Source: a virus. Taken from it: 36,977 bases of DNA. This document shows positions 8,938 through 18,730 of the stretch, one piece after another (the stretch's first letter is position 1; each line of letters starts with the position of its first letter). Below the pieces are notes generated by a model, which was not told the DNA's origin, ran no database searches, and was given only the letters and a program-made list of their open reading frames with translations. Position numbers and translations under genes: made by a program. The stretch covers positions 1 through 36,977 of IMG/VR virus record IMGVR_UViG_3300023240_000005, one strand, 5' to 3'.

Positions 8938-8973
8938 CGCTGAGGTATGCCAGCCCGAGGGCGGAAAAAGATC

Positions 8974-9228
8974 ATGAATACACAAACAACATCGCCGCCC
9001 TTGGGATTGGCATCACCGACTGGTTCGCTTTCTTCTTGTGGGTGTGGCGGGAAGGTCGGTTCACGCGCCGCCGTCAAGTTTCACCCACGGCTAAACATCA
9101 TGGACGGAATCATCCGCTACGACGTGCGGTGCGCCCGGTGCAAAAAGACAGCCACCACGAAAGACGGCAAGGGATTCCAATCTTGGAAGACTGCGCTGAG
9201 AGCGTGGAATAATAAAGCGAACGCCTAG
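8974..9228 (+). CDS. Lar-family-like zinc-ribbon protein (restriction alleviation-like)
   Basis: SSCGCGGK....RCARCKKTA....KTALRAWNNKANA resembles the Lar pattern CPFCGG...C..C....A..AWNRR. The start is chosen at ATG 8974 (MNTQTT). Confidence 0.45.
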   Translation: MNTQTTSPPLGLASPTGSLSSCGCGGKVGSRAAVKFHPRLNIMDGIIRYDVRCARCKKTATTKDGKGFQSWKTALRAWNNKANA

Positions 9229-9266: not shown

Positions 9267-9563
9267 ATGGACGAAACGAACCAAAAACCTAGCTCCGAAA
9301 CAGCAAGCGGGGGAGATGTCGGTCTGCAATCTCTTGTTAGGTGCCCTGCTTGCGGGTCGCGCCGCACCGAATCAGGCCAGCCATCTCGGCGCGTATTTTT
9401 CACCTGCGACAGCTATGCCTATGAAAATAGGCATAAATTGATCGACCAAACGGATTTGTGCGCCGCGTGGGAGACGATCAAACGAATCGGCGAAGTGGTC
9501 ACGACGGACTACGAAACGAAAGAAGATTTTATATCGCGGGTTCGGCTCATACTTTCCACCTAA
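9267..9563 (+). CDS. Zinc-ribbon-like hypothetical protein
   Basis: ORF of 98 aa with RCPACGSRR...FFTCDSY...LCAAWE. Confidence 0.45.
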   Translation: MDETNQKPSSETASGGDVGLQSLVRCPACGSRRTESGQPSRRVFFTCDSYAYENRHKLIDQTDLCAAWETIKRIGEVVTTDYETKEDFISRVRLILST

Positions 9564-9617
9564 CGCAATAGCGATGGCATCCGCCGACCCAGAACCAACC
9601 CCAAGCCAAACGACCTC

Positions 9618-10244
<627 letters not shown>

Positions 10245-10253
10245 AAAAGGATG

Positions 10254-10282
10254 TTGACGGGAATCAAAATAGGGCCTATTCT
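10254..10282 (+). promoter_or_regulatory. Candidate sigma70-like promoter for the 80-aa gene, copy 1
   Basis: TTGACG (10254..10259), 17-nt spacer, TATTCT (10277..10282), lying 22 nt upstream of the ATG at 10305. Confidence 0.35.
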
Positions 10283-10304
10283 TCGCACGTAACCAGCCAA
10301 TAAA

Positions 10305-10547
10305 ATGAAAACGAACACACTCCAATCCGGCACCAAAATCCTGATGAAATACCTCACCCAAAAAGCAACGCTCATCGACGGCAACGGATACATCCAAGGA
10401 TCCGGCCTCGCCGTAATCGACCATGACGACACGATCAGCATTGGTCGCTCCGAGTATCCGAAACACGAACTCACCATTGGCCGCGGTGAGATCGTCAGTA
10501 AGATGTCGGACCCGGCGTGGAGCGTGACATGGGATAAAGCACAGTAG
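10305..10547 (+). CDS. Hypothetical 80-aa protein, copy 1 of 2; moron-like with its own promoter
   Basis: MKTNTLQSGTKILMKYLTQKATLIDGNGYIQGSGLAVIDHDD... GC looks lower than the flanks by eye. Confidence 0.55.
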   Translation: MKTNTLQSGTKILMKYLTQKATLIDGNGYIQGSGLAVIDHDDTISIGRSEYPKHELTIGRGEIVSKMSDPAWSVTWDKAQ

Positions 10548-10640
10548 GCGACGCATTGGCCACCTAAAGCCACCCCCCCGCACCCGCCCGCCCCTCGAAA
10601 GGGGGCCGGGAAAATAAACGAGAAACATTGAAAAAGGATG

Positions 10641-10669
10641 TTGACGGGAATCAAAATAGGGCCTATTCT
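10641..10669 (+). promoter_or_regulatory. Candidate sigma70-like promoter, copy 2
   Basis: Identical to 10254..10282, shifted by 387 bp. Confidence 0.35.
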
Positions 10670-10691
10670 TCGCACGTAACCAGCCAATAAA

Positions 10692-10934
10692 ATGAAAACG
10701 AACACACTCCAATCCGGCACCAAAATCCTGATGAAATACCTCACCCAAAAAGCAACGCTCATCGACGGCAACGGATACATCCAAGGATCCGGCCTCGCCG
10801 TAATCGACCATGACGACACGATCAGCATTGGTCGCTCCGAGTATCCGAAACACGAACTCACCATTGGCCGCGGTGAGATCGTCAGTAAGATGTCGGACCC
10901 GGCGTGGAGCGTGACATGGGATAAAGCACAGTAG
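10692..10934 (+). CDS. Hypothetical 80-aa protein, copy 2 of 2
   Basis: Identical to 10305..10547. Confidence 0.55.
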   Translation: MKTNTLQSGTKILMKYLTQKATLIDGNGYIQGSGLAVIDHDDTISIGRSEYPKHELTIGRGEIVSKMSDPAWSVTWDKAQ

Positions 10935-10973
10935 GCGACGCATTGGCCACCTAAAGCCACCCCCCCGCACCCG

Positions 10974-11001
10974 CCCGCCCCTCGAAAGGGGGCGGGTTTC
11001 T
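10974..11001 (+). terminator. Rho-independent terminator-like hairpin closing the duplicated cassette
   Basis: CCCGCCCC (10974..10981) pairs with GGGGCGGG (10989..10996), loop TCGAAAG, followed by TTTCT. The equivalent sites in copies 1 and 2 have an imperfect stem and AAAATAAA instead of Ts. Confidence 0.55.
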
Positions 11002-11018
11002 GGGTGCCAACCAAGAAA

Positions 11019-11327
11019 ATGACAACCATCAAAATCCTCGCCATCCTCAGCCCCGCCCAAACCCTCCGAATTCCGAGGATCACCCTCCGCTCCGACGGAA
11101 CCCTCTGGGCCCGAGACAACACTACCCCGCTAGTCAACAGCAGCGGAACTCTTAACGCGGATCAACTCCGCGTCCTCGTGTCCGAGAAACAGTGGGACAA
11201 GATCCCTGCCGACAACTACATGAGGCTCGGGATCAACCCAGGGGCCAAAGAGTGCATCGACGATGCGCTCCTCGCCATCATCCGCAACAGCGACGGCTAC
11301 AAGGCCGCGCTAGAAGTCCGCGACTAA
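11019..11327 (+). CDS. Hypothetical protein; an alternative GTG start lies at 11004
   Basis: MTTIKILAILSPAQTLRIPRITLRSDGTLWARD...; the ATG follows the terminator hairpin. Confidence 0.5.
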   Translation: MTTIKILAILSPAQTLRIPRITLRSDGTLWARDNTTPLVNSSGTLNADQLRVLVSEKQWDKIPADNYMRLGINPGAKECIDDALLAIIRNSDGYKAALEVRD

Positions 11328-11360
11328 TCTCCAAAACCAACCAACCAACCAACCAAACAA

Positions 11361-11789
11361 ATGACAACCACCGAACAACTCGCCGCCGCCCGTGCCGAAC
11401 AACTCGCCGAACTCCGCGCCGAAATCCGCGCCGAACAACTCGCCGCCGAACTCCTCGACGACCTCCTCGCCGCCGACCTCCGTGCCGCCGCACAACTCGC
11501 CGACACCCGCGCCGACACCCGCGCAGCACAACTCGACGACCTCCTCGCCGACCTCCTCGCCGACCTCCGCGACGACATCCTCGCCGCCGACCTCCGCGCC
11601 GCCACCCGCGCCGACCTCCGTGCCGAACTCCGCGACGAACTCCGCGCCGAACTCCGCGACGAACTCCGCGCCGCCCTCCACGCCGCCGAACAACTCGCCG
11701 CCGCACAACTCGCCGACCTCCGCGCCAGCCACATCACCGAGGAAACAGCAGCCACCTACACCGCCGCCAGCGACCCCGTCCAGCCCTAA
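11361..11789 (+). CDS. Low-complexity (xxLR)n tetrapeptide-repeat protein, paralog A
   Basis: MTTTEQLAAARAEQLAELRAEIRAEQL...ADLRAELRDELRAELRDELRAAL. It shares its leader (CCAA-rich ...caaacaaATGACAACCACCGAACAACTCGCCGCC) with paralog B. All six frames are open here, so the frame was chosen from the conserved start and from coupling. Confidence 0.45.
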   Translation: MTTTEQLAAARAEQLAELRAEIRAEQLAAELLDDLLAADLRAAAQLADTRADTRAAQLDDLLADLLADLRDDILAADLRAATRADLRAELRDELRAELRDELRAALHAAEQLAAAQLADLRASHITEETAATYTAASDPVQP

Positions 11790-11816
11790 CCCCTCCCAAA
11801 CCAACCAAACAAACAA

Positions 11817-12155
11817 ATGACAACCACCGAACAACTCGCCGCCGACCGCGACGAAGAACTCGCCGACCTCCGAGCCGACCTACGCGCCGACCTCCACGCC
11901 GCCGAACAACTCGCCAACCTCCGCGCCAAACAACTCGCCAGCATCCGCGACGAACTCCTCGCCGACCTACGCGCCGACCTCCGCGACGACCTCATCGCCA
12001 AACTCCGCGACGAACTCCTCGACGACATCCTCGCCGACCTCCTCGCCGACACCCGCGCCGAACAACTCGCCAAACTCCGCTCCAACCTCCGCGCCGCCGA
12101 ACAACTCGCCGACCTCCGCGCCAGCCAACTCGCCGCCGGAAACTTCCAGTCATGA
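11817..12155 (+). CDS. Low-complexity (xxLR)n repeat protein, paralog B
   Basis: Same N-terminus MTTTEQLAA. It ends AAEQLADLRASQLAAGNFQS, with its stop overlapping the next ATG (ATGA at 12152..12155). Confidence 0.45.
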   Translation: MTTTEQLAADRDEELADLRADLRADLHAAEQLANLRAKQLASIRDELLADLRADLRDDLIAKLRDELLDDILADLLADTRAEQLAKLRSNLRAAEQLADLRASQLAAGNFQS

Positions 12156-12340
12156 AACCGACACGAGGCGGAAAACGAGCAGGAGCCGGAAGGCCCCCCG
12201 GCTCCGGCCATGGGCGGACAGTCGACTCGTCCAGCATTTCGCTGACGCCGGATCTGTGGGGCAAGCTGGACAAGCTACGCCGCGACCAATCCAGGAGCGC
12301 ATTCCTCGCCGCTAAGCTCCGAAAAATGAGACCCAAGCCC
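12087..12340. repeat. 254-bp direct repeat, left copy; partner at 13356..13609, offset 1269 bp, no indels, a handful of mismatches
   Basis: Aligned by eye. Differences: gactcgtcc vs gcatcgtcc, gacaagctacgccgcgac vs gacctcctgcgccgagac, ccgaaaaatg vs ccggaagatg. Confidence 0.85.
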
Positions 12341-12358
12341 GAGGAAACGAAATCATGA
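12152..12358 (+). CDS. Small RHH-like DNA-binding protein with an N-terminal GGKRAGAGRP motif, copy 1
   Basis: MKPTRGGKRAGAGRPPGSGHGRTVDSSSISLTPDLWGKLDKLRRDQSRSAFLAAKLRKM...; beta-strand then helix-helix pattern. ATGA coupling to both neighbours. Confidence 0.5.
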   Translation: MKPTRGGKRAGAGRPPGSGHGRTVDSSSISLTPDLWGKLDKLRRDQSRSAFLAAKLRKMRPKPEETKS

Positions 12359-13302
12359 CCGCCGATTTGGCCGGTGAGGTAATGGGAGCGATGTCTTGTT
12401 CTGTGCTGGGGGCGGATCGCCACATCATTCCAATCTCGGGCAAGGACTCGCTCGCTACGGCTATCGTCCAGACGGCACGCGAACCGGATCTAAACTACGA
12501 ATACATCTATAATGATACTAAGATGGAGCTTCCAGAAACCTATGAGTGGATGGACAAGGTGGAAAAGGTGATGGGAATCAAGATCATCCGATCAGGAAAG
12601 AGCCTACGGACGATCATCGAAGAGCAAAAAATACTCCCATCGCCGATGACCAGATTTTGCACGAAGTATGCAAAAATCTTCCCGATGCGCGACTACATCG
12701 GAAAAGATAAGGCCACTCTCTACATCGGTATTCGCGCCGACGAAGATCGACCAGGCGCACAGGAAACCAAGAATATCCATGTGAAATACCCGCTAAAAGA
12801 AATGGGGGTGAATCTCGCACTCGTCTATCGGCTGGTCGAAGAGAGAGACCTGATGCCGCCCGGATTCTTCTGGCAGCGGATCTATGATATGGTCGTCGCT
12901 CAACTAGGCGATCAAGCAGGGATCATCCAAGAAATTCCGAAATGGATATTCGACCGCACCTTCGCGTGGCGCTCGCGTCCGAACTGCTACATGTGCTTCT
13001 ACCAGCGGATGTATGAATGGTGCGGGATGCTGGAACATCACCCGCTTCTCTTCGCGGATGCGGAGGACATCGAGGCCCGACACGGCTTCTCAGAACACAC
13101 GAAAAGCCATGCCTTCCTGTGGCTCGGAAAGGACAAACCACTCTCGCACATCCGCGACAACGCCGAGCGGATTATTCAGGCACGGGTAGATAAAATCTGC
13201 AAGATCCTACGGAAACGCCTGCAAATGGAACTCTTCACTGACGCGCTCTGCGACGAACTTGAAGCCGCGCAAACATCCTGCGGCATGTATTGTGGCAAAT
13301 GA
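12355..13302 (+). CDS. PAPS reductase / PP-loop ATP pyrophosphatase family protein (DndC-like fold class)
   Basis: PP-loop-like ISGKDS (12436..12450), RFCTKYAKIFP and GIRADEDRPG motifs. Cys clusters NCYMCFYQ and C-terminal SCGMYCGK. GC is visibly lower than the flanks. Confidence 0.75.
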   Translation: MTADLAGEVMGAMSCSVLGADRHIIPISGKDSLATAIVQTAREPDLNYEYIYNDTKMELPETYEWMDKVEKVMGIKIIRSGKSLRTIIEEQKILPSPMTRFCTKYAKIFPMRDYIGKDKATLYIGIRADEDRPGAQETKNIHVKYPLKEMGVNLALVYRLVEERDLMPPGFFWQRIYDMVVAQLGDQAGIIQEIPKWIFDRTFAWRSRPNCYMCFYQRMYEWCGMLEHHPLLFADAEDIEARHGFSEHTKSHAFLWLGKDKPLSHIRDNAERIIQARVDKICKILRKRLQMELFTDALCDELEAAQTSCGMYCGK

Positions 13303-13424
13303 AAACCGCAACCGAACCCTCCCGCGAAGCCATCCCAGCCGAACTCCGCGACGCACTCCGCGCCGCCGAACAACTCGCCGACCTCCGCGCCAGCCAACTC
13401 GCCGCCGGAAACTTCCAGTCATGA
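13299..13424 (+). CDS. Truncated third paralog of the xxLR-repeat protein, 41 aa; possibly a remnant
   Basis: MKTATEPSREAIPAELRDALRAAEQLADLRASQLAAGNFQS. ATGA-coupled at both ends. The C-terminal 20 aa are identical to paralog B. Confidence 0.3.
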   Translation: MKTATEPSREAIPAELRDALRAAEQLADLRASQLAAGNFQS

Positions 13425-13609
13425 AACCGACACGAGGCGGAAAACGAGCAGGAGCCGGAAGGCCCCCCGGCTCCGGCCATGGGCGGACAGTCGCATCGTC
13501 CAGCATTTCGCTGACGCCGGATCTGTGGGGCAAGCTGGACCTCCTGCGCCGAGACCAATCCAGGAGCGCATTCCTCGCCGCTAAGCTCCGGAAGATGAGA
13601 CCCAAGCCC
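13356..13609. repeat. 254-bp direct repeat, right copy
   Basis: See 12087..12340. Confidence 0.85.
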
Positions 13610-13612
13610 TAG
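13421..13612 (+). CDS. Small RHH-like DNA-binding protein, copy 2
   Basis: MKPTRGGKRAGAGRPPGSGHGRTVASSSISLTPDLWGKLDLLRRDQSRSAFLAAKLRKMRPKP; about 95% identical to copy 1. Confidence 0.5.
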   Translation: MKPTRGGKRAGAGRPPGSGHGRTVASSSISLTPDLWGKLDLLRRDQSRSAFLAAKLRKMRPKP

Positions 13613-13621
13613 TAGCGCCCA

Positions 13622-13972
13622 ATGAAATCTATGAAACAAAATACAAACACCGAGGCGGAAACCGCCCAAATCACGGACAGCCAAGCGGATGTCCAGCAGC
13701 GTCTTCGGCTGCTTCTTGACCAATTCAGGCATGTTGTCGCCACCCGCCGAGAGGTGGCGGGATACTGGAGTGTAACAGGCTTTTCCGTTCTCGCATCCAG
13801 CAGTGCGCGAGTAGCGAACCTATTTGAAATATGCGCGGACGAACTCGAACGGACCATATCAAACGAGCCGGATAGCCCAACTCGCGCAGAAATCCTGTTC
13901 GGAGCTATCGAAGAGCTGCAACGGTTGATAGCTTATTTCCGGTCAATACAAGACAACCAACCATGCAGCTAA
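13622..13972 (+). CDS. Hypothetical protein
   Basis: ORF of 116 aa with helical-looking composition. Confidence 0.5.
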   Translation: MKSMKQNTNTEAETAQITDSQADVQQRLRLLLDQFRHVVATRREVAGYWSVTGFSVLASSSARVANLFEICADELERTISNEPDSPTRAEILFGAIEELQRLIAYFRSIQDNQPCS

Positions 13973-14320
13973 TGAGATACGGGACGCCCATGCCCGACCA
14001 GCATCAGCCGCAAGACCATGCCAGAGCCGAGCATGCGCAAACCACCGGCTCTGAAAAAGTCTACCGAAACCCGTCAAGCATGAAAGCAAAAAGATCACAT
14101 CGACAGACCGTCAACCACTCACGACATTTCGGATGTCCTTACATTGTAAATCCCTTGACCTTCAGGGGGGCAAAATGCGACCATGCGGCACCCCCCCCCG
14201 GCAAAGGAATCTTTTTACCTCCAAAACGTAAGGTAAGTTTGGTTCCGTTGCTTACAATTCCTGCGGGACACCTCCCCCACGATCCCAAATATCCCGAGCG
14301 ATGAAAGAAAACCCCAAGCG
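13973..14320. promoter_or_regulatory. Non-coding region upstream of terS; candidate late regulatory region or packaging (cos/pac) region
   Basis: The only ORF here (13963..14304) has non-coding-like composition. G6 (14165..14170) and C9 (14191..14199) form an inverted pair. A 20-bp direct repeat AGCGATGAAAGAAAAyCCCm (14297..14336) spans the terS start. Confidence 0.3.
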
Positions 14321-14824
14321 ATGAAAGAAAATCCCACAAAAAGGAAGAGCCCGATTCCTCCGCCTCCTCGTCCGAGGAAGAAAATCGGGGATGAGCTGCC
14401 GCATGTTGCGACCTCGATGAAAGCTGGGGCGTTGGCGTGGGGCTTGCCGATCAGCGAGATTAGGCGGGCGCGGACGGGGGGGTGCAAGGCGTTCGTGGGG
14501 CAGAAAGTTTATCTCGACGGGCTGACGGCTTGGCTTACGGCGAATCCCCCGGAGCCCGCGAGTGGGGGAGGGGAGTCCCTTGATGACGCGGACAAGGAGG
14601 AGTTGGAGAGGAGGAAGCTGATCCGGGTGGTCAATCGGTTGGACATCGGGATTCAATCCGACCGGCACAAGCTGGCGGTGACGAAGGACGAGTTCGTGTC
14701 GAAGGAGCTGGTCAAGGAGGAATGGGCGCGCCTTTGGGCGATCATTGAGGCGGAGGCGAAAGACCTGATGGACAAGTCGATATTCCCCGTTTTTGTGGCG
14801 AGGGTGAAGGCGAAAATCAAATGA
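14321..14824 (+). CDS. terS: Putative terminase small subunit
   Basis: It sits immediately upstream of terL and is ATGA-coupled to it. N-terminal HTH-like segment (AGALAWGLPISEIRRARTGGCKAFVGQKVYLDGLTAWL) followed by a charged helical region. Confidence 0.55.
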   Translation: MKENPTKRKSPIPPPPRPRKKIGDELPHVATSMKAGALAWGLPISEIRRARTGGCKAFVGQKVYLDGLTAWLTANPPEPASGGGESLDDADKEELERRKLIRVVNRLDIGIQSDRHKLAVTKDEFVSKELVKEEWARLWAIIEAEAKDLMDKSIFPVFVARVKAKIK

Positions 14825-16668
14825 CCGATACCGAATACCTCCGCGAGACGTTCGACGGGATTGTGCAGACACCGTTCCAGGGCGATATTATGGAGTGGTC
14901 GGATGGGAAATTGAAAATCCCGTATTCAGTTCGGTATCCGATTTACATTGCAAGCGAATCGCCTTGGCTGATTGAGACGCTTAGAGCGTTATCAGATCCA
15001 AAGATTCGGCGCGTCGATGTGAGGATGCCAGCGGGAGCAGCGAAGTCGCTTATCGGGGAGATCCAGATTGCCCATTGCCTAGCGGAAGATCCGGGATTGT
15101 ATTACTACGTATGGCAAACGGATGATGACGCAAAAGACGCGATGGAGGATCGCATTTACCCGATGATCGAGGCGAACGAATTCCTCGCGAAACGGATGCC
15201 TGTTGATCGGAACAAGAAGCGTGGGATGAAGATCGCGGCCCCGCACATGAGCCTTTACGCGGTGGGGGCAAATCTTTCGGCGGCCCAGTCGAAGCGGGTG
15301 AAGTGGTTGACGATGGAGGAGCCGCACCTTTACGGACCTGGGATGATGACGGCTTTCGAGAAGCGAGTTGAAGGGGTGAAAGATTACAAGATCCTGACCC
15401 TATCGACTGGCAGCGTTCTAGGCGATGAGTCGGACGATTCTTTTAATGCAGGTTCATGCGACGTATGGCAAGTGCCGTGCCCTTATTGTAATCAGTTTCA
15501 AACGATGAGCGATCACAAGGATAGGCTTAGATCAAAAATTGATAAGGATACCTGCGACGAGAACGGGGATTACAACTGGTCTAAAATCCTGCCCACCGTC
15601 CGATATAATTGCGAGCATTGCGGAATGGACTGGCCGACCGATGAGGCTTCAAGAAAAGATCAATCGCAACTAGGCAGATACATCTCTACGAATCCGAACG
15701 CGCCAGAAGATCACAGATCGTTCCACATGGAGGCGGTATCAGTGCATTATTTCCCATTGCCAAAGCTATTGATGGAGAAGATCCGCGCAAGTTACGCGGC
15801 AAAGCGTGGAGCAATGGAGCCCCTGAAGGACTACATTCAGAAACGGAGGGCGATGGCTTGGGATGAATCTCCTATCGACTCCGACCAAGACGCGGCCTTT
15901 GATCGGTCGAAAGGCAACTATCACAAGCGGGAGGATTTTGAGGGAGAGAAAACGCGGTTTATCTGTATCGACAACCAAGCGGGGAAGGCGTCTCGGGGAG
16001 AGGGAGCGCATCGTTGGTATGTGTGTCGCGCGTTCGGCGCGGACGAGTGCCGCCTGATCGATGAGGGCAAGATCACGTCGTGGGAGGAGATGGAGGAGAA
16101 GCGGATTGAGTTGGGGGTTGAGACGGGTCGGACGCTGGTGGACATCGCGTTTGACACGGCGGCGGTGCAGGCTGTGTGCGTTCGCTACGGGTGGATGGGC
16201 CTTTGGGGCGACATGACGAACAAGCGTTCGTTCCCGCATCATGAGCCGGTGACGGTGAACGGGAAGCCCGATAGGCTCACGCGGAACTATCCGTTCTCTC
16301 CGTCGAACATCGGGCATGTGGGGATCGGGAAAGAAGGGATTCGGCGGCAGGCTCGTTACTTTTTTTGGTGTCAGAATCCTATCAAGGACATGTATCATCG
16401 GCTCCGGCTGGGGATGAGTACTTACCGATGGACGGTTCCGCAGGACGTCTCGGAGGATTACCGAAAGCAGACGCAAGCGGAATACAAGACGATCACCATC
16501 GAGAAGAAGACGGGGCGGAAGGTGCGGGCGTATAAATCCAAGGGGGACAACCACCTTGGGGACTGCGACCAGATGTGTCTGGTGTCAGCGATCATGGACC
16601 CGAATCTGAGGGCGTTGCTGTGGGGTGCGGAGGACGAGAAAGAGGATGAGGAGGAAAAAAAGGGTTGA
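14821..16668 (+). CDS. terL: Terminase large subunit, lambda GpA-like
   Basis: 615 aa. P-loop-like MPAGAAKS, acidic LTMEEPH, and the GpA-style zinc module CPYCNQFQ...NCEHCG. Confidence 0.85.
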   Translation: MTDTEYLRETFDGIVQTPFQGDIMEWSDGKLKIPYSVRYPIYIASESPWLIETLRALSDPKIRRVDVRMPAGAAKSLIGEIQIAHCLAEDPGLYYYVWQTDDDAKDAMEDRIYPMIEANEFLAKRMPVDRNKKRGMKIAAPHMSLYAVGANLSAAQSKRVKWLTMEEPHLYGPGMMTAFEKRVEGVKDYKILTLSTGSVLGDESDDSFNAGSCDVWQVPCPYCNQFQTMSDHKDRLRSKIDKDTCDENGDYNWSKILPTVRYNCEHCGMDWPTDEASRKDQSQLGRYISTNPNAPEDHRSFHMEAVSVHYFPLPKLLMEKIRASYAAKRGAMEPLKDYIQKRRAMAWDESPIDSDQDAAFDRSKGNYHKREDFEGEKTRFICIDNQAGKASRGEGAHRWYVCRAFGADECRLIDEGKITSWEEMEEKRIELGVETGRTLVDIAFDTAAVQAVCVRYGWMGLWGDMTNKRSFPHHEPVTVNGKPDRLTRNYPFSPSNIGHVGIGKEGIRRQARYFFWCQNPIKDMYHRLRLGMSTYRWTVPQDVSEDYRKQTQAEYKTITIEKKTGRKVRAYKSKGDNHLGDCDQMCLVSAIMDPNLRALLWGAEDEKEDEEEKKG

Positions 16669-16701
16669 CTGGCGTAGGCGGTTAGGGTATCAACGGGACA
16701 G

Positions 16702-16857
16702 ATGATTTGTCCGCACTGCAATAAGTCCCTGCCCGATTCGACGATTGCCAAGCATTTGGCAGCGAAGGGGGGGAGGAAGAGCAGGCGGAAGATCACGCCG
16801 GAGCAGCAAGCAATGATGCAGGCGGCGAAGGCAAAGAAGAAAAACAACACTAAATAA
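16702..16857 (+). CDS. Small basic CxxC protein, 51 aa; below the ORF-track cutoff
   Basis: Manual translation gives MICPHCNKSLPDSTIAKHLAAKGGRKSRRKITPEQQAMMQAAKAKKKNNTK. Confidence 0.3.
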   Translation: MICPHCNKSLPDSTIAKHLAAKGGRKSRRKITPEQQAMMQAAKAKKKNNTK

Positions 16858-16862
16858 AAAAT

Positions 16863-17423
16863 ATGAAAATTGCAACATGTAACCTGACATCACACGCGCC
16901 ACTCCTGCAAAGCCGGATGCACGCGACGGACAAGCTCGACCGGGAGACCGCTCAGGATTATGAGGAGCGCGTTTGGAAAAACAAGGCGCACATCGACAAT
17001 GACGGGAATGTTTTCATCCCCGGCGTGGCGTTCAAAAAGGCGATGCAAGACGCGGCGAAGTTCCTCAACATCCAGATTCCCGGAAAGGGGAAATCGACCT
17101 ACACCAAGCATTTCAAGTCTGGGGTGATGGTGTTTTCCAACGTGGAGACCGGGAACAAGGAGAGCGACATCCTCAAGCGTCCGATCAACTGCAACTCGGA
17201 TGGGGTTGCGGGTTCTGGCAAGCGGGTTCTGCGGTTTTTCCCGGAACTCACCTCATGGGAGGGGACGCTGATCGTGCATGTCCTGGACGACACGGTGACA
17301 AAAGACATCTTGGAGCAGGTTCTCGTGGCCGCTGGACAGTTCATGGGGGTTGGGGCGTTCCGTCCGCAGAACGGGAATGGCTCCGGGATCTTCGCGGTTG
17401 AGGACATCGAGTGGGATAGCTGA
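16863..17423 (+). CDS. Hypothetical protein with a C-terminal Gly-rich motif
   Basis: ORF of 186 aa ending GQFMGVGAFRPQNGNGSGIFAVEDIEWDS. The repeat array begins immediately after its stop codon. Confidence 0.55.
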   Translation: MKIATCNLTSHAPLLQSRMHATDKLDRETAQDYEERVWKNKAHIDNDGNVFIPGVAFKKAMQDAAKFLNIQIPGKGKSTYTKHFKSGVMVFSNVETGNKESDILKRPINCNSDGVAGSGKRVLRFFPELTSWEGTLIVHVLDDTVTKDILEQVLVAAGQFMGVGAFRPQNGNGSGIFAVEDIEWDS

Positions 17424-17630
17424 TTTTCCACCACAACACTGCACAGCACGGCACCCCACAACACAACACGACACGACAACCGCTTTTCCGGCACCACACC
17501 GCACTGCACTGCACGTCACCCCACAACACAACACGACACGACAACCGCTTTTCCGCCACGCCACGCCACTTCACCCCACAACACGCCACGCCACGCCACG
17601 CCACAACCCGACCCGACACGACAACCCTTC
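17424..17630. repeat. Upstream arm of the C/A-only repeat array: 2 exact 22-mer cores plus 1 degenerate
   Basis: CGACACGACAACCGCTTTTCCG at 17469..17490 and 17534..17555. A degenerate copy lies at 17608..17630. TTTTCC sits at 17424, right after the stop. Confidence 0.9.
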
Positions 17631-18132: not shown

Positions 18133-18730
18133 CTTTTCCGCCACTGCACTGCACCCCACTTCACTTCACTTCACAACCCGACACGACCCGACACGACAAC
18201 CGCTTTTCCGTCACAACACATCACAGCACACCACACAACACCACACCACAACCCGACCCGACACGACAACCGCTTTTCCGGCACCGCACGGCACAGCACA
18301 TCACCCCACATCACAACCCGACACGACAACCGCTTTTCCGACACATCACGGCACTCCACCACACTGCACTACACCTCACGCCACGACCCGACCCGACACG
18401 ACAACCGCTTTTCCGTCACAACACATCACAGCACTTCACATCACCTCACTACCCGACCCGACACGACAACCGCTTTTCCGCCACGCCACAGCACTTCACA
18501 TCACCTCACTACCCGACCCGACACGACAACCGCTTTTCCGACACCCCACTGCACTTCACACCACTTCACCCCACAACACAACCCGACACGACAACCGCTT
18601 TTCCGGCACCTCACCGCACTGCACCGCACGTCACCCCACAACACAACCCGACACGACAACCGCTTTTCCGCCACGTCACTGCACTGCACCCCACTTCACT
18701 TCACTTCACAACCCGACCCGACACGACACG
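18132..18730. repeat. Downstream arm of the C/A-only repeat array: 8 exact 22-mer cores plus truncated and degenerate ends
   Basis: Cores start at 18189, 18259, 18319, 18394, 18459, 18519, 18584 and 18649, spaced 70/60/75/65/60/65/65 bp. The variable segments are phased NCACN pentamers. Confidence 0.9.

Follow-up and report, generated by a model that had tools for sequence, protein, structure and literature searches.

Between two long direct repeats of a phage genome lies a single gene with the motifs of the PAPS reductases, and the locus raises the question of what this gene encodes and how it came to be bracketed in this way. The genome is IMG/VR record IMGVR_UViG_3300023240_000005, and the whole stretch analysed (positions 1 to 36,977, hereafter the window) is that of a tailed phage of ~37 kb with nearly all genes on the plus strand, among them those for ERF, a single-strand-binding (SSB)-like protein, a SNF2-N6/N4 methyltransferase fusion, a replication initiator, DnaB and a portal protein. 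The locus is present in 24 runs, and its source is salt-lake metagenomes; no RNA run holding it was found, and a blastn search with positions 9500-17000 gave no match in 50,697 deposited phages. An earlier note, made from the letters of the sequence alone, had described a low-GC cassette captured or duplicated by recombination between low-complexity repeats, and had named DndC and BrxP as possible relatives of its gene. The reading that we favour, with moderate confidence, is that of an accessory slot in the early region, bounded by gene pairs that undergo conversion, whose cargo is a member of the SspD family with a role in phosphorothioate (PT)-type DNA modification or counter-defence.

Assignment of the bracketed gene to the SspD family

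12355-13302, plus strand: solitary SspD-like PP-loop/Cys-rich putative enzyme, 315 aa, with the family core at residues 22-315

SspD is the PP-loop ATP-pyrophosphatase/cysteine-cluster component of the SspABCD DNA phosphorothioation machinery. The motifs noticed at first reading, both those of the PP-loop/PAPS-reductase type (ISGKDS, RFCTKYAKIFP, GIRADED) and the Cys clusters (NCYMCFYQ, SCGMYCGK), proved to be family characters, since SGKDS, RFCT, GIRADE, NCxxCF and SCGxxCGK are invariant across 25 family members. The protein also has the expected match to Pfam PF01507 (PAPS_reduct; 37.5 bits versus a cut-off of 22.5), and the PADLOC profile of SspD (PDLC02782) recognizes it with 173 bits (E=2.2e-51, residues 22-291 versus profile positions 1-246 of 277), to be compared with 379-381 bits for canonical members. 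With canonical SspD it shares 36% identity in a whole-length alignment (BLASTP 3e-49), in which the PP-loop K/D/S, RxCT, GIRADE, CxxCFxQRxYEW and the C-terminal Cys pair are common and C102, C211, C214, C309 and C313 are invariant in phage and canonical sequences (alignment A3). The resemblance to the SspD of SspABCD(-SspE/SspFGH) systems therefore covers the full length of the protein, which differs from it in being phage-borne and in never occurring with SspA, SspB, SspC or restriction partners.

DndC and BrxP, like the window protein, are PAPS-reductase-fold, Cys-containing proteins, and act in DNA phosphorothioation; both were named in the earlier note. No DndC profile matched the window protein at E<=0.1 in PADLOC, although canonical SspD proteins do give weak DndC matches, and the DndC identity was rejected for this reason. 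The match to the BrxP profile is marginal, covering ~100 residues (28-131 versus positions 141-254 of 779, E=3.3e-7), and this identity was rejected as well, considering that the protein has 315 aa against a profile of 779 positions and that no BREX genes are present in the window, where neither brxC/Z/L nor dndD/E genes were found. BrxP itself is an SspD-SspB fusion with an SspB-like DUF4007 domain (PMC12914056). Concerning CysH, the Pfam domain and the N-terminal alpha/beta fold are the same, whereas the SspD-type C-terminal half and the DNA-metabolism context are not: its neighbourhood, as far as the window proteins were scanned, consists of genes for replication, recombination, methylation and the terminase, with none for sulfate assimilation. 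The curated cysH models of NCBIfam failed by more than 140 bits (NF002537, 12.9 versus 154; TIGR00434, 13.1 versus 165.1), and CysH was rejected on both grounds. Sequence comparison thus gives good support to an SspD-type protein rather than DndC, BrxP or CysH.

A structural model of the protein was obtained with AlphaFold2 (AF2; pLDDT 82) and used for a fold search. The best solved-structure matches were APS/PAPS reductases, covering the N-terminal ~170 residues; TtuA, LarE, GMP synthetase and QueC followed with weaker scores, and no SspD or DndC structure was among the matches.

Distribution of solitary SspD-like genes

In a scan of 185,579 species genomes, many homologues with ~33-40% identity were found in Cyanobacteria and Chloroflexota. 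The bacterial homologues that were examined (~35% identity) stand in the order sspB-sspC-homologue-sspF, as confirmed by PADLOC, which at the canonical locus gives 408 bits for SspB, 1419 for SspC, 379 for SspD and 792 for SspF. In IMG/VR, on the other hand, 25 viral contigs carry the phage type without SspB/SspC, while three carry canonical sspBCD. Close relatives of the window gene (71-78% nucleotide identity) are found in phage backbones that differ widely: one is lambda-like and encodes RecT, Mom and ParB, another combines ParB with a methylase and a primase, and a further one resembles a podovirus. Nucleotide homology to each of them is restricted to the open reading frame (ORF), from ~12385-12417 to 13302. 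An exhaustive search returned 953 representative clusters (E<=1e-3), 76 of which reach E<=1e-30; of the latter, among the matches listed, ~45 align over nearly the full length. From these comparisons the stand-alone SspD homologues form a coherent, phage-associated clade, found only in metagenomes.

Some further homologues deserve mention. The same lake samples contain a second SspD-like allele (P0001; 88% amino acid identity), which has a different N-terminal extension (...DGGLGLDAP...) and a genomic context of its own; run X1 has a loose end at window position 12396. The closest homologue from a cellular genome (78% amino acid identity) belongs to the Verrucomicrobiales metagenome-assembled genome (MAG) LH_M34 (L013, JAGXGH010000140.1), where it adjoins a DUF4031 protein, the only one of its neighbours with a family match; this is a possible pointer to the phylum of the host or to a prophage. 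Three Leptospiraceae/Spirochaetota MAGs (L024, L031, L038) possess SspD homologues ~50% identical to canonical SspD with no SspB/SspC nearby, which may represent a second solitary lineage.

Anatomy of the direct repeats

The features of the locus are the following.

11361-11789, plus strand: xxLR-A, acidic, with 4-aa (12-nt) repeats, 142 aa, the first of two tandem paralogues
11817-12155, plus strand: xxLR-B, 112 aa, ending ...LAAGNFQS; its last ~66 nt open the left repeat, and it is ATGA-coupled to the next gene
12087-12340: left copy of the direct repeat, 254 nt
12152-12358, plus strand: small basic 'RHH-like' gene 1, 68 aa, long form ...PKPEETKS, preceding the cargo
12355-12375, plus strand: 7-codon slot leader MTADLAG, in frame with the cargo
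13299-13424, plus strand: mini-xxLR ORF, 41 aa, ending ...LAAGNFQS, with ATGA overlaps at both ends
13356-13609: right copy of the direct repeat, 254 nt
13421-13612, plus strand: small basic 'RHH-like' gene 2, 63 aa, short form ...PKP
13631-13972, plus strand: slot-associated 113-aa gene MKQNTNTEAE..., with no family match

The repeats had been described as equal in length, free of indels and different by a few substitutions, and we confirmed this description: the two copies align in direct orientation with 9 substitutions (96.5% identity), the initial 138 nt being their longest identical run. Weaker homology reaches leftward to 12069/13338 (275 nt at 94%) and runs rightward ~25 nt past the small ORFs, with one 6-nt indel, to the start codon of the next gene. 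The similarity is far above chance, and within the window there is just one further long repeat with two copies. As the earlier note had it, each copy combines the tail of an xxLR-repeat ORF with an entire small ORF (68 and 63 aa), and a single gene lies between them; the tail measures ~66 nt, and the right xxLR tail belongs to the 41-codon ORF at 13299-13424, which overlaps the stop codon of the SspD-like gene and is called as a gene in independent contigs. The ATGA coupling was found at every junction, four out of four.

A second copy produced by a mis-join, or by a variant collapsed during assembly, had to be considered, because Logan contigs collapse or break at the repeat and several MEGAHIT contigs begin or finish inside it. 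However, both copies, each with its own unique flanks and with the same haplotypes at the 9 fixed sites, are present in at least ten independent assemblies from different samples and from two pipelines (ENA MEGAHIT and JGI), which shows that the repeats are not an assembly duplication. Moreover, the longest identical run is shorter than k=141, and where Logan contigs collapse the repeat its depth is ~1.5-1.8x that of the flanks, as two copies predict. The assembly artefact, an outcome envisaged by the earlier note, can be regarded as effectively refuted.

The two copies of the small ORF differ by 4 single-nucleotide changes, all at synonymous third positions, which marks these ORFs as real genes under purifying selection; in two further codons, giving D25A and K41L, more than one nucleotide is replaced. 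What separates the long C-terminus from the short one is point changes creating a stop (GAG>TAG) and one 6-nt indel. The small protein has just three database homologues, one of which (P0121, 86% identical) comes from the second phage described below. Its labelling as a ribbon-helix-helix (RHH) protein could not be confirmed: no Pfam family was matched (E<=0.01), no RHH protein emerged from the PDB profile search, and the PHROG match was a weak one to a family of unknown function. The AF2 monomer (pLDDT 67) has one helix at residues 33-59 and an unstructured basic arm, a result that neither confirms nor excludes the RHH fold because RHH strands form in dimers only. The small gene as an obligate SspD partner was a further candidate, rejected since other SspD-like genes occur without it.

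Within a genome the paralogues of this repeat unit are 93-100% identical, between genomes 84-86%, and 16 parsimony-informative sites group the copies by genome while none groups them by position. Together with the long/short arrangement, which is common to the window phage and to the second phage described below, this shows concerted evolution by gene conversion; a conversion-like patch of 2 nt, with right-copy alleles within the left copy, is visible in assembly L102. The repeats are the conserved parts of two paralogous pairs, each made of an xxLR gene and a small basic gene, and not the scar of a fresh insertion.

The xxLR proteins are acidic (D+E 24-30 versus K+R 15; 30 versus 15 in xxLR-A), have a common N-terminus MTTTEQLAA and C-terminus LAAGNFQS, and are always translationally coupled to a small basic gene. 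xxLR-A, which is of 134 aa in some assemblies versus 142 in the window, belongs to no Pfam or PHROG family, and the sole match of the xxLR proteins is a weak, coiled-coil-like one to type I HsdS; a DNA mimic or anti-restriction protein is conceivable. Both small genes contain, in their Gly/Arg-rich N-terminal coding part (12182-12205 and 13451-13474), a G+C-rich palindrome GGAGCCGG...CCGGCTCC with a 10-pair stem, which the scan flagged as terminator-like on the minus strand; as it is less palindromic in the second phage, it is probably incidental.

The gene had also been thought clearly lower in G+C content (GC) than its surroundings, and this impression did not hold. Its GC is 0.524 versus a mean of 0.568 for the other genes (sd 0.032, range 0.522-0.647), several of which are comparably low (0.522, 0.526, 0.538, 0.540, 0.544), and corresponds to the 7.5th percentile of 948-nt windows; GC at third codon positions (GC3) is 0.642 versus 0.683±0.067, and the codon-usage distance (0.119) is what a gene of this length usually shows. 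A compositional island was rejected on these values, and measured by the condition that the earlier note had set for itself, its GC claim fails. The AT-rich appearance is explained by the contrast with the adjacent xxLR genes (GC 0.67-0.72).

The same slot in a second phage

A second phage, a 36-kb podovirus-like genome on one IMG/VR contig (L112, L113 and L114), has three copies of the small gene. In one part of it (L112) the first copy, RHH-a, is of the long form (...TKS) and is followed by a 10-codon mini-ORF, a C5 DNA methyltransferase, a 113-aa gene, a mini-xxLR of 44 aa ending ...LAAGNFQS and the second copy, RHH-b, of the short form. In another part (L113) the copy RHH-c is followed by a 230-aa phrog_12600 protein and then by a hybrid ORF with the 23-residue N-terminus of the 113-aa protein. 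The region of the 113-aa gene has 92% nucleotide identity between the two genomes (window 13602-13963 versus L112 8437-8798). It is evident that two phages with unrelated virion modules keep the same order, that is long-form small gene, cargo, mini-xxLR and short-form small gene, with different cargo; since this arrangement is retained in an unrelated phage, the duplication must be old. Counting the window, the small gene is followed by an SspD-like gene, by a C5 methylase or by a phrog_12600 gene in three slots.

The boundaries of the cargos are also shared. DNA near-identical to that of the slot leader (ATGACCGNCGATTTNGCCGG) opens the unrelated phrog_12600 cargo after RHH-c, so that the first ~21 nt of the SspD-like ORF (ATGACCGCCGATTTGGCCGGT, MTADLAG) resemble the start of that cargo (MTDDLAG), which indicates that the leader belongs to the slot. 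Homology to other SspD-like genes begins only past the leader, at ~12385-12417, and a slot-owned leader explains the 21-residue N-terminal extension of the window protein, missing in most family members. At the other end, the C5 methylase gene terminates in sequence that duplicates the 3' end of the small gene together with the beginning of the 113-aa gene (GCCAAGCCCTAGTAGCGCCAAAATAAATCTATGAAACAAAAT), and this core is also found where the phrog_12600 gene ends; a boundary core of ~33 nt is repeated on both sides of the cargos. The right joint of the window has a CAAATGA microhomology at the start of the xxLR gene. These boundary copies and the leader indicate that cargos are exchanged at short conserved sequences around start/stop overlaps.

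A 23-residue N-terminus, MKQNTNTEAETAQITDSQADVQQ, heads both the 113-aa protein and the 108-aa hybrid ORF of the second phage (L112 8466-8807 and L113 1697-2023), and a 145-aa ORF after RHH-b (L112 9145-9582) likewise opens with the DNA of its initial seven codons or more. In the hybrid ORF it is followed by an xxLR-type N-terminus, and it is a second leader that recombines in frame.

In morons and in T4-type promoter/stem-loop (PeSL) cassettes, short repeated sequences flank variable genes and act as recombination substrates for modular shuffling. The slot differs from both, because its repeated unit is a protein-coding gene pair instead of a promoter/stem-loop, and because its cargo ORFs connect through overlapping start and stop codons and can acquire a leader in frame. 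At nucleotide resolution it shows how unrelated phages exchange accessory genes: the flanking genes evolve in concert, boundary cores recur around each cargo, and cargos take over a leader in frame.

Variants and mosaicism around the slot

The earlier note had supposed that the cassette could be excised by homologous recombination between the repeats, and had suggested a search for variants lacking 12341..13609. Excision is mechanically possible, but it was not seen in any assembly spanning the locus, as no spanning contig is without the SspD-like gene. The sequence pattern of an excision product had no occurrence in metagenome_contigs and viral_contigs, collections that do not contain this phage, given that the intact right junction was also found zero times; and the Logan contigs of four runs show no joints, but they collapse the repeat and cannot show rare variants. 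A contig of run X22 with mixed alleles is a possible assembly chimera.

What does vary is the sequence next to the slot.

14191: mosaic breakpoint of contig ERZ27315896:k141_169614 (L010/L101/L109)
14821-16668: gpA-type large terminase of the window

This contig of 37.7 kb is 99.4% identical to the window from 14191 onward and ends inside the left repeat at 12271, and its first 2.8 kb, upstream of the terminase module, are occupied by different genes, one ORF of 296 aa and a DUF5906/primase-like one of 425 aa. The different left-hand genes suggest that the region from the small gene to 14191 is a mosaic hotspot. The variant co-occurs with the window phage, and contigs like it are present in other samples. 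The idea of a cassette therefore survives in spirit, as an exchangeable slot, since homology to relatives is confined to the ORF and other cargo is present in an unrelated phage.

Role of the SspD-like protein and alternative explanations

The gene has the appearance of an exchangeable one for DNA modification or counter-defence, rather than of one for sulfur metabolism. The DNA-modification or counter-defence role proposed in the earlier note is still the best reading, and is better grounded through SspD than it was through DndC or BrxP, although the step from homology to function is inferred. In the favoured reading of the locus, where gene conversion keeps the two xxLR/small-basic pairs nearly identical, the enzyme would bind ATP at SGKDS, while its conserved cysteines would hold a cluster carrying sulfur, loaded by a host cysteine desulfurase. 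The enzyme could then thiolate phage DNA, or plug into or interfere with a host phosphorothioate system, and the phage would evade phosphorothioate-based restriction. The small basic proteins would probably be regulators of the slot, comparable to Aca or C proteins, and their genes may double as homology arms for cargo swaps between co-infecting phages. To the counter-defence mechanism taken alone we would give somewhat less than an even chance.

Precedents for parts of this scheme are available. In Vibrio crassostreae podophages a PAPS-domain gene, as demonstrated by experiment, gives resistance to host Dnd and replaces, at one locus, the methylases of sister phages (Piel et al., bioRxiv 10.1101/2021.05.05.442762). 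As here, a phage PAPS-fold gene lacks the remaining PT machinery and stands at a methylase-swapping locus; comparing by description, the Vibrio protein is a 479-aa PAPS-Dam fusion likened by its authors to DndC, in contrast to the 315-aa stand-alone SspD type of the window. A 2026 survey reported that DndC/SspD-like PAPS reductases under Aca control occur in variable regions of phage genomes, and described Aca14, an anti-defence regulator of the RHH type (PMC13551039). In those operons too, putative small DNA-binding genes mark variable loci with cargo for anti-defence or DNA modification, PAPS reductases and methylases included, whereas our small gene, again comparing by description, is upstream, translationally coupled, paired with xxLR and present in 2-3 concerted copies per genome.

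Several observations weigh against the proposed role and against the slot as a general arrangement. Known phosphorothioation also requires SspB, a nickase, and SspC, an ATPase (or BrxC), sspBCD being the minimal functional set (PMC12914056), and tblastn with confirmed SspB and SspC gave no match in the whole window. The same search found them in none of 19 phage-type loci (those whose protein is nearer the phage type than canonical SspD), in contrast to the canonical loci, which, provided that the flank suffices, nearly all have both. The phage clade differs from canonical SspD in an insert of ~31 aa, in a PP-loop one Gly shorter (SGKDS versus SGGKDS) and in its C-terminal motif (SCGxxCGK versus C-LxCHL). 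In deposited phages tblastn gives just partial matches of 27-32%, with no close cultured relative. As for the slot, its pattern was seen in no more than two phage lineages, an RHH neighbour is missing beside other SspD-like genes, and the phrog_12600 cargo is without a Pfam, PADLOC or PDB match. The RHH fold and the regulatory role of the small proteins are putative, and the promoter scan found no sigma-70-like promoter in 10900-14900.

Other explanations of the locus as a whole were weighed against the same evidence. The similarity and direct orientation of the repeats, the right-allele patch in L102, the frequent breaking of contigs at the repeat and the presence of an ERF-type recombinase would all suit a recent scar, left when an xxLR-RHH unit was doubled on insertion of the PAPS reductase; on this view the cassette would be unstable and readily lost. 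But the long/short arrangement and the mini-xxLR are kept in an unrelated phage, which makes the duplication old, and the differences between copies (4 synonymous and 2 multi-nucleotide codon changes) are unlike random decay. Haplotypes are fixed in at least ten assemblies, every spanning contig keeps the gene, and GC and codon usage are ordinary; we therefore hold a recent scar to be unlikely, and repeats arising as a by-product of low-complexity capture or duplication do not agree with paralogous pairs that are under purifying selection and evolve in concert. Alternatively, small basic protein and enzyme could be an addiction or controller pair, in which each potentially toxic cargo needs its own antidote or regulator. 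A small DNA-binding-like gene overlapping the start of an enzyme by ATGA is indeed the usual layout of toxin-antitoxin and controller systems, and three different cargos are each preceded by such a gene. On the other side, small gene 2 of the window and RHH-b precede small MKQNTNT... proteins instead of enzymes, SspD-like genes elsewhere have no such partner, and no antitoxin family was matched, so that this hypothesis appears distinctly improbable.

With respect to the enzyme, its substrate could be other than DNA: a protein SspD-like by descent only might thiolate or adenylate a tRNA, a nucleotide or a cofactor, as do TtuA, TtcA, LarE or QueC. The absence of the DNA-handling partners SspB and SspC speaks for this, as do the insert and C-terminus specific to the clade and the appearance of TtuA, LarE, GMP synthetase and QueC, with weaker scores, in the fold search. 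Yet SspD proteins are the closest characterised relatives by a wide margin, the slot is also used by a DNA methyltransferase, other members lie among replication and DNA-methylase genes, and a phage PAPS-domain gene works against Dnd; a non-DNA substrate has in our opinion a minor, though real, chance of being the answer. Phage PAPS reductases have also been read in the literature as cysH auxiliary metabolic genes (AMGs) (PMC13369170, bioRxiv 10.64898/2026.02.18.706556), which would boost the assimilatory sulfate reduction of the host, a view in agreement with the PAPS_reduct match and with APS/PAPS reductases being the top solved-structure matches. That fold match is limited to the N-terminal ~170 residues, though, and the protein has the canonical ATP-type PP-loop lysine, aspartate and serine together with the SspD-specific CxxCFxQRxYEW and C-terminal Cys pair; considering also the cysH scores of 12.9-13.1 bits against cut-offs of 154-165 and the lack of sulfate-assimilation neighbours among the window proteins scanned, a metabolic gene of this type is very improbable.

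Returning to the slot with an SspD-family cargo, a bolder version of it would make the xxLR and small basic pairs portable adaptors, and would make the solitary SspD a phage invention that installs PT or a related sulfur modification on viral DNA without SspB/SspC; we consider this quite unlikely. If it were true that a lone SspD modifies viral DNA in this way, it would be the first virus-autonomous backbone modification, and adaptor modules would permit unrelated phages to swap counter-defence genes in frame and with the precision of a single ORF. Independently of this version, phage 'PAPS reductase' genes are widely counted as cysH AMGs, and a clade that points to SspD changes the interpretation of viromes. 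The clade also makes testable the question posed by the Vibrio anti-Dnd gene, i.e. how a lone PAPS-fold protein defeats a phosphorothioate-based defence.

Other features of the window

A 93-aa ORF at 8947-9228 has a weak, sub-threshold match to Lar (PF14354, E=0.007, 17 bits versus a cut-off of 28.6); if truly Lar (restriction alleviation), it would be a further anti-restriction gene of the same early region.

Tandem repeats are present in other parts of the window. At 10172-10993 a perfect tandem duplication of 387 nt (2.1 copies, 100% identical) doubles an 80-aa ORF (10305-10547 and 10692-10934), and it is polymorphic, with one copy in most independent assemblies and two in the window and in JGI 3300022885. 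Non-coding arrays of a 65-nt C/A-rich tandem unit, whose period is not a multiple of 3, occupy 17437-17607 (1.9 copies) and 18184-18728 (8.2 copies) and flank a 162-aa gene on both sides; the spacing of the flanking genes at the array is 221 nt in L009 versus 156 nt in L010, a difference of 65 nt. Iterons, a packaging array or a regulatory array are possibilities for these arrays. An Ala/Trp-rich ORF at 9618-10244 contains a 9/27-nt repeat (9941-10090) with a local GC of 0.73, and its length varies by sample (208, 205 and 191 aa); this repeat is common to many unrelated contigs, which results in a very high depth there.

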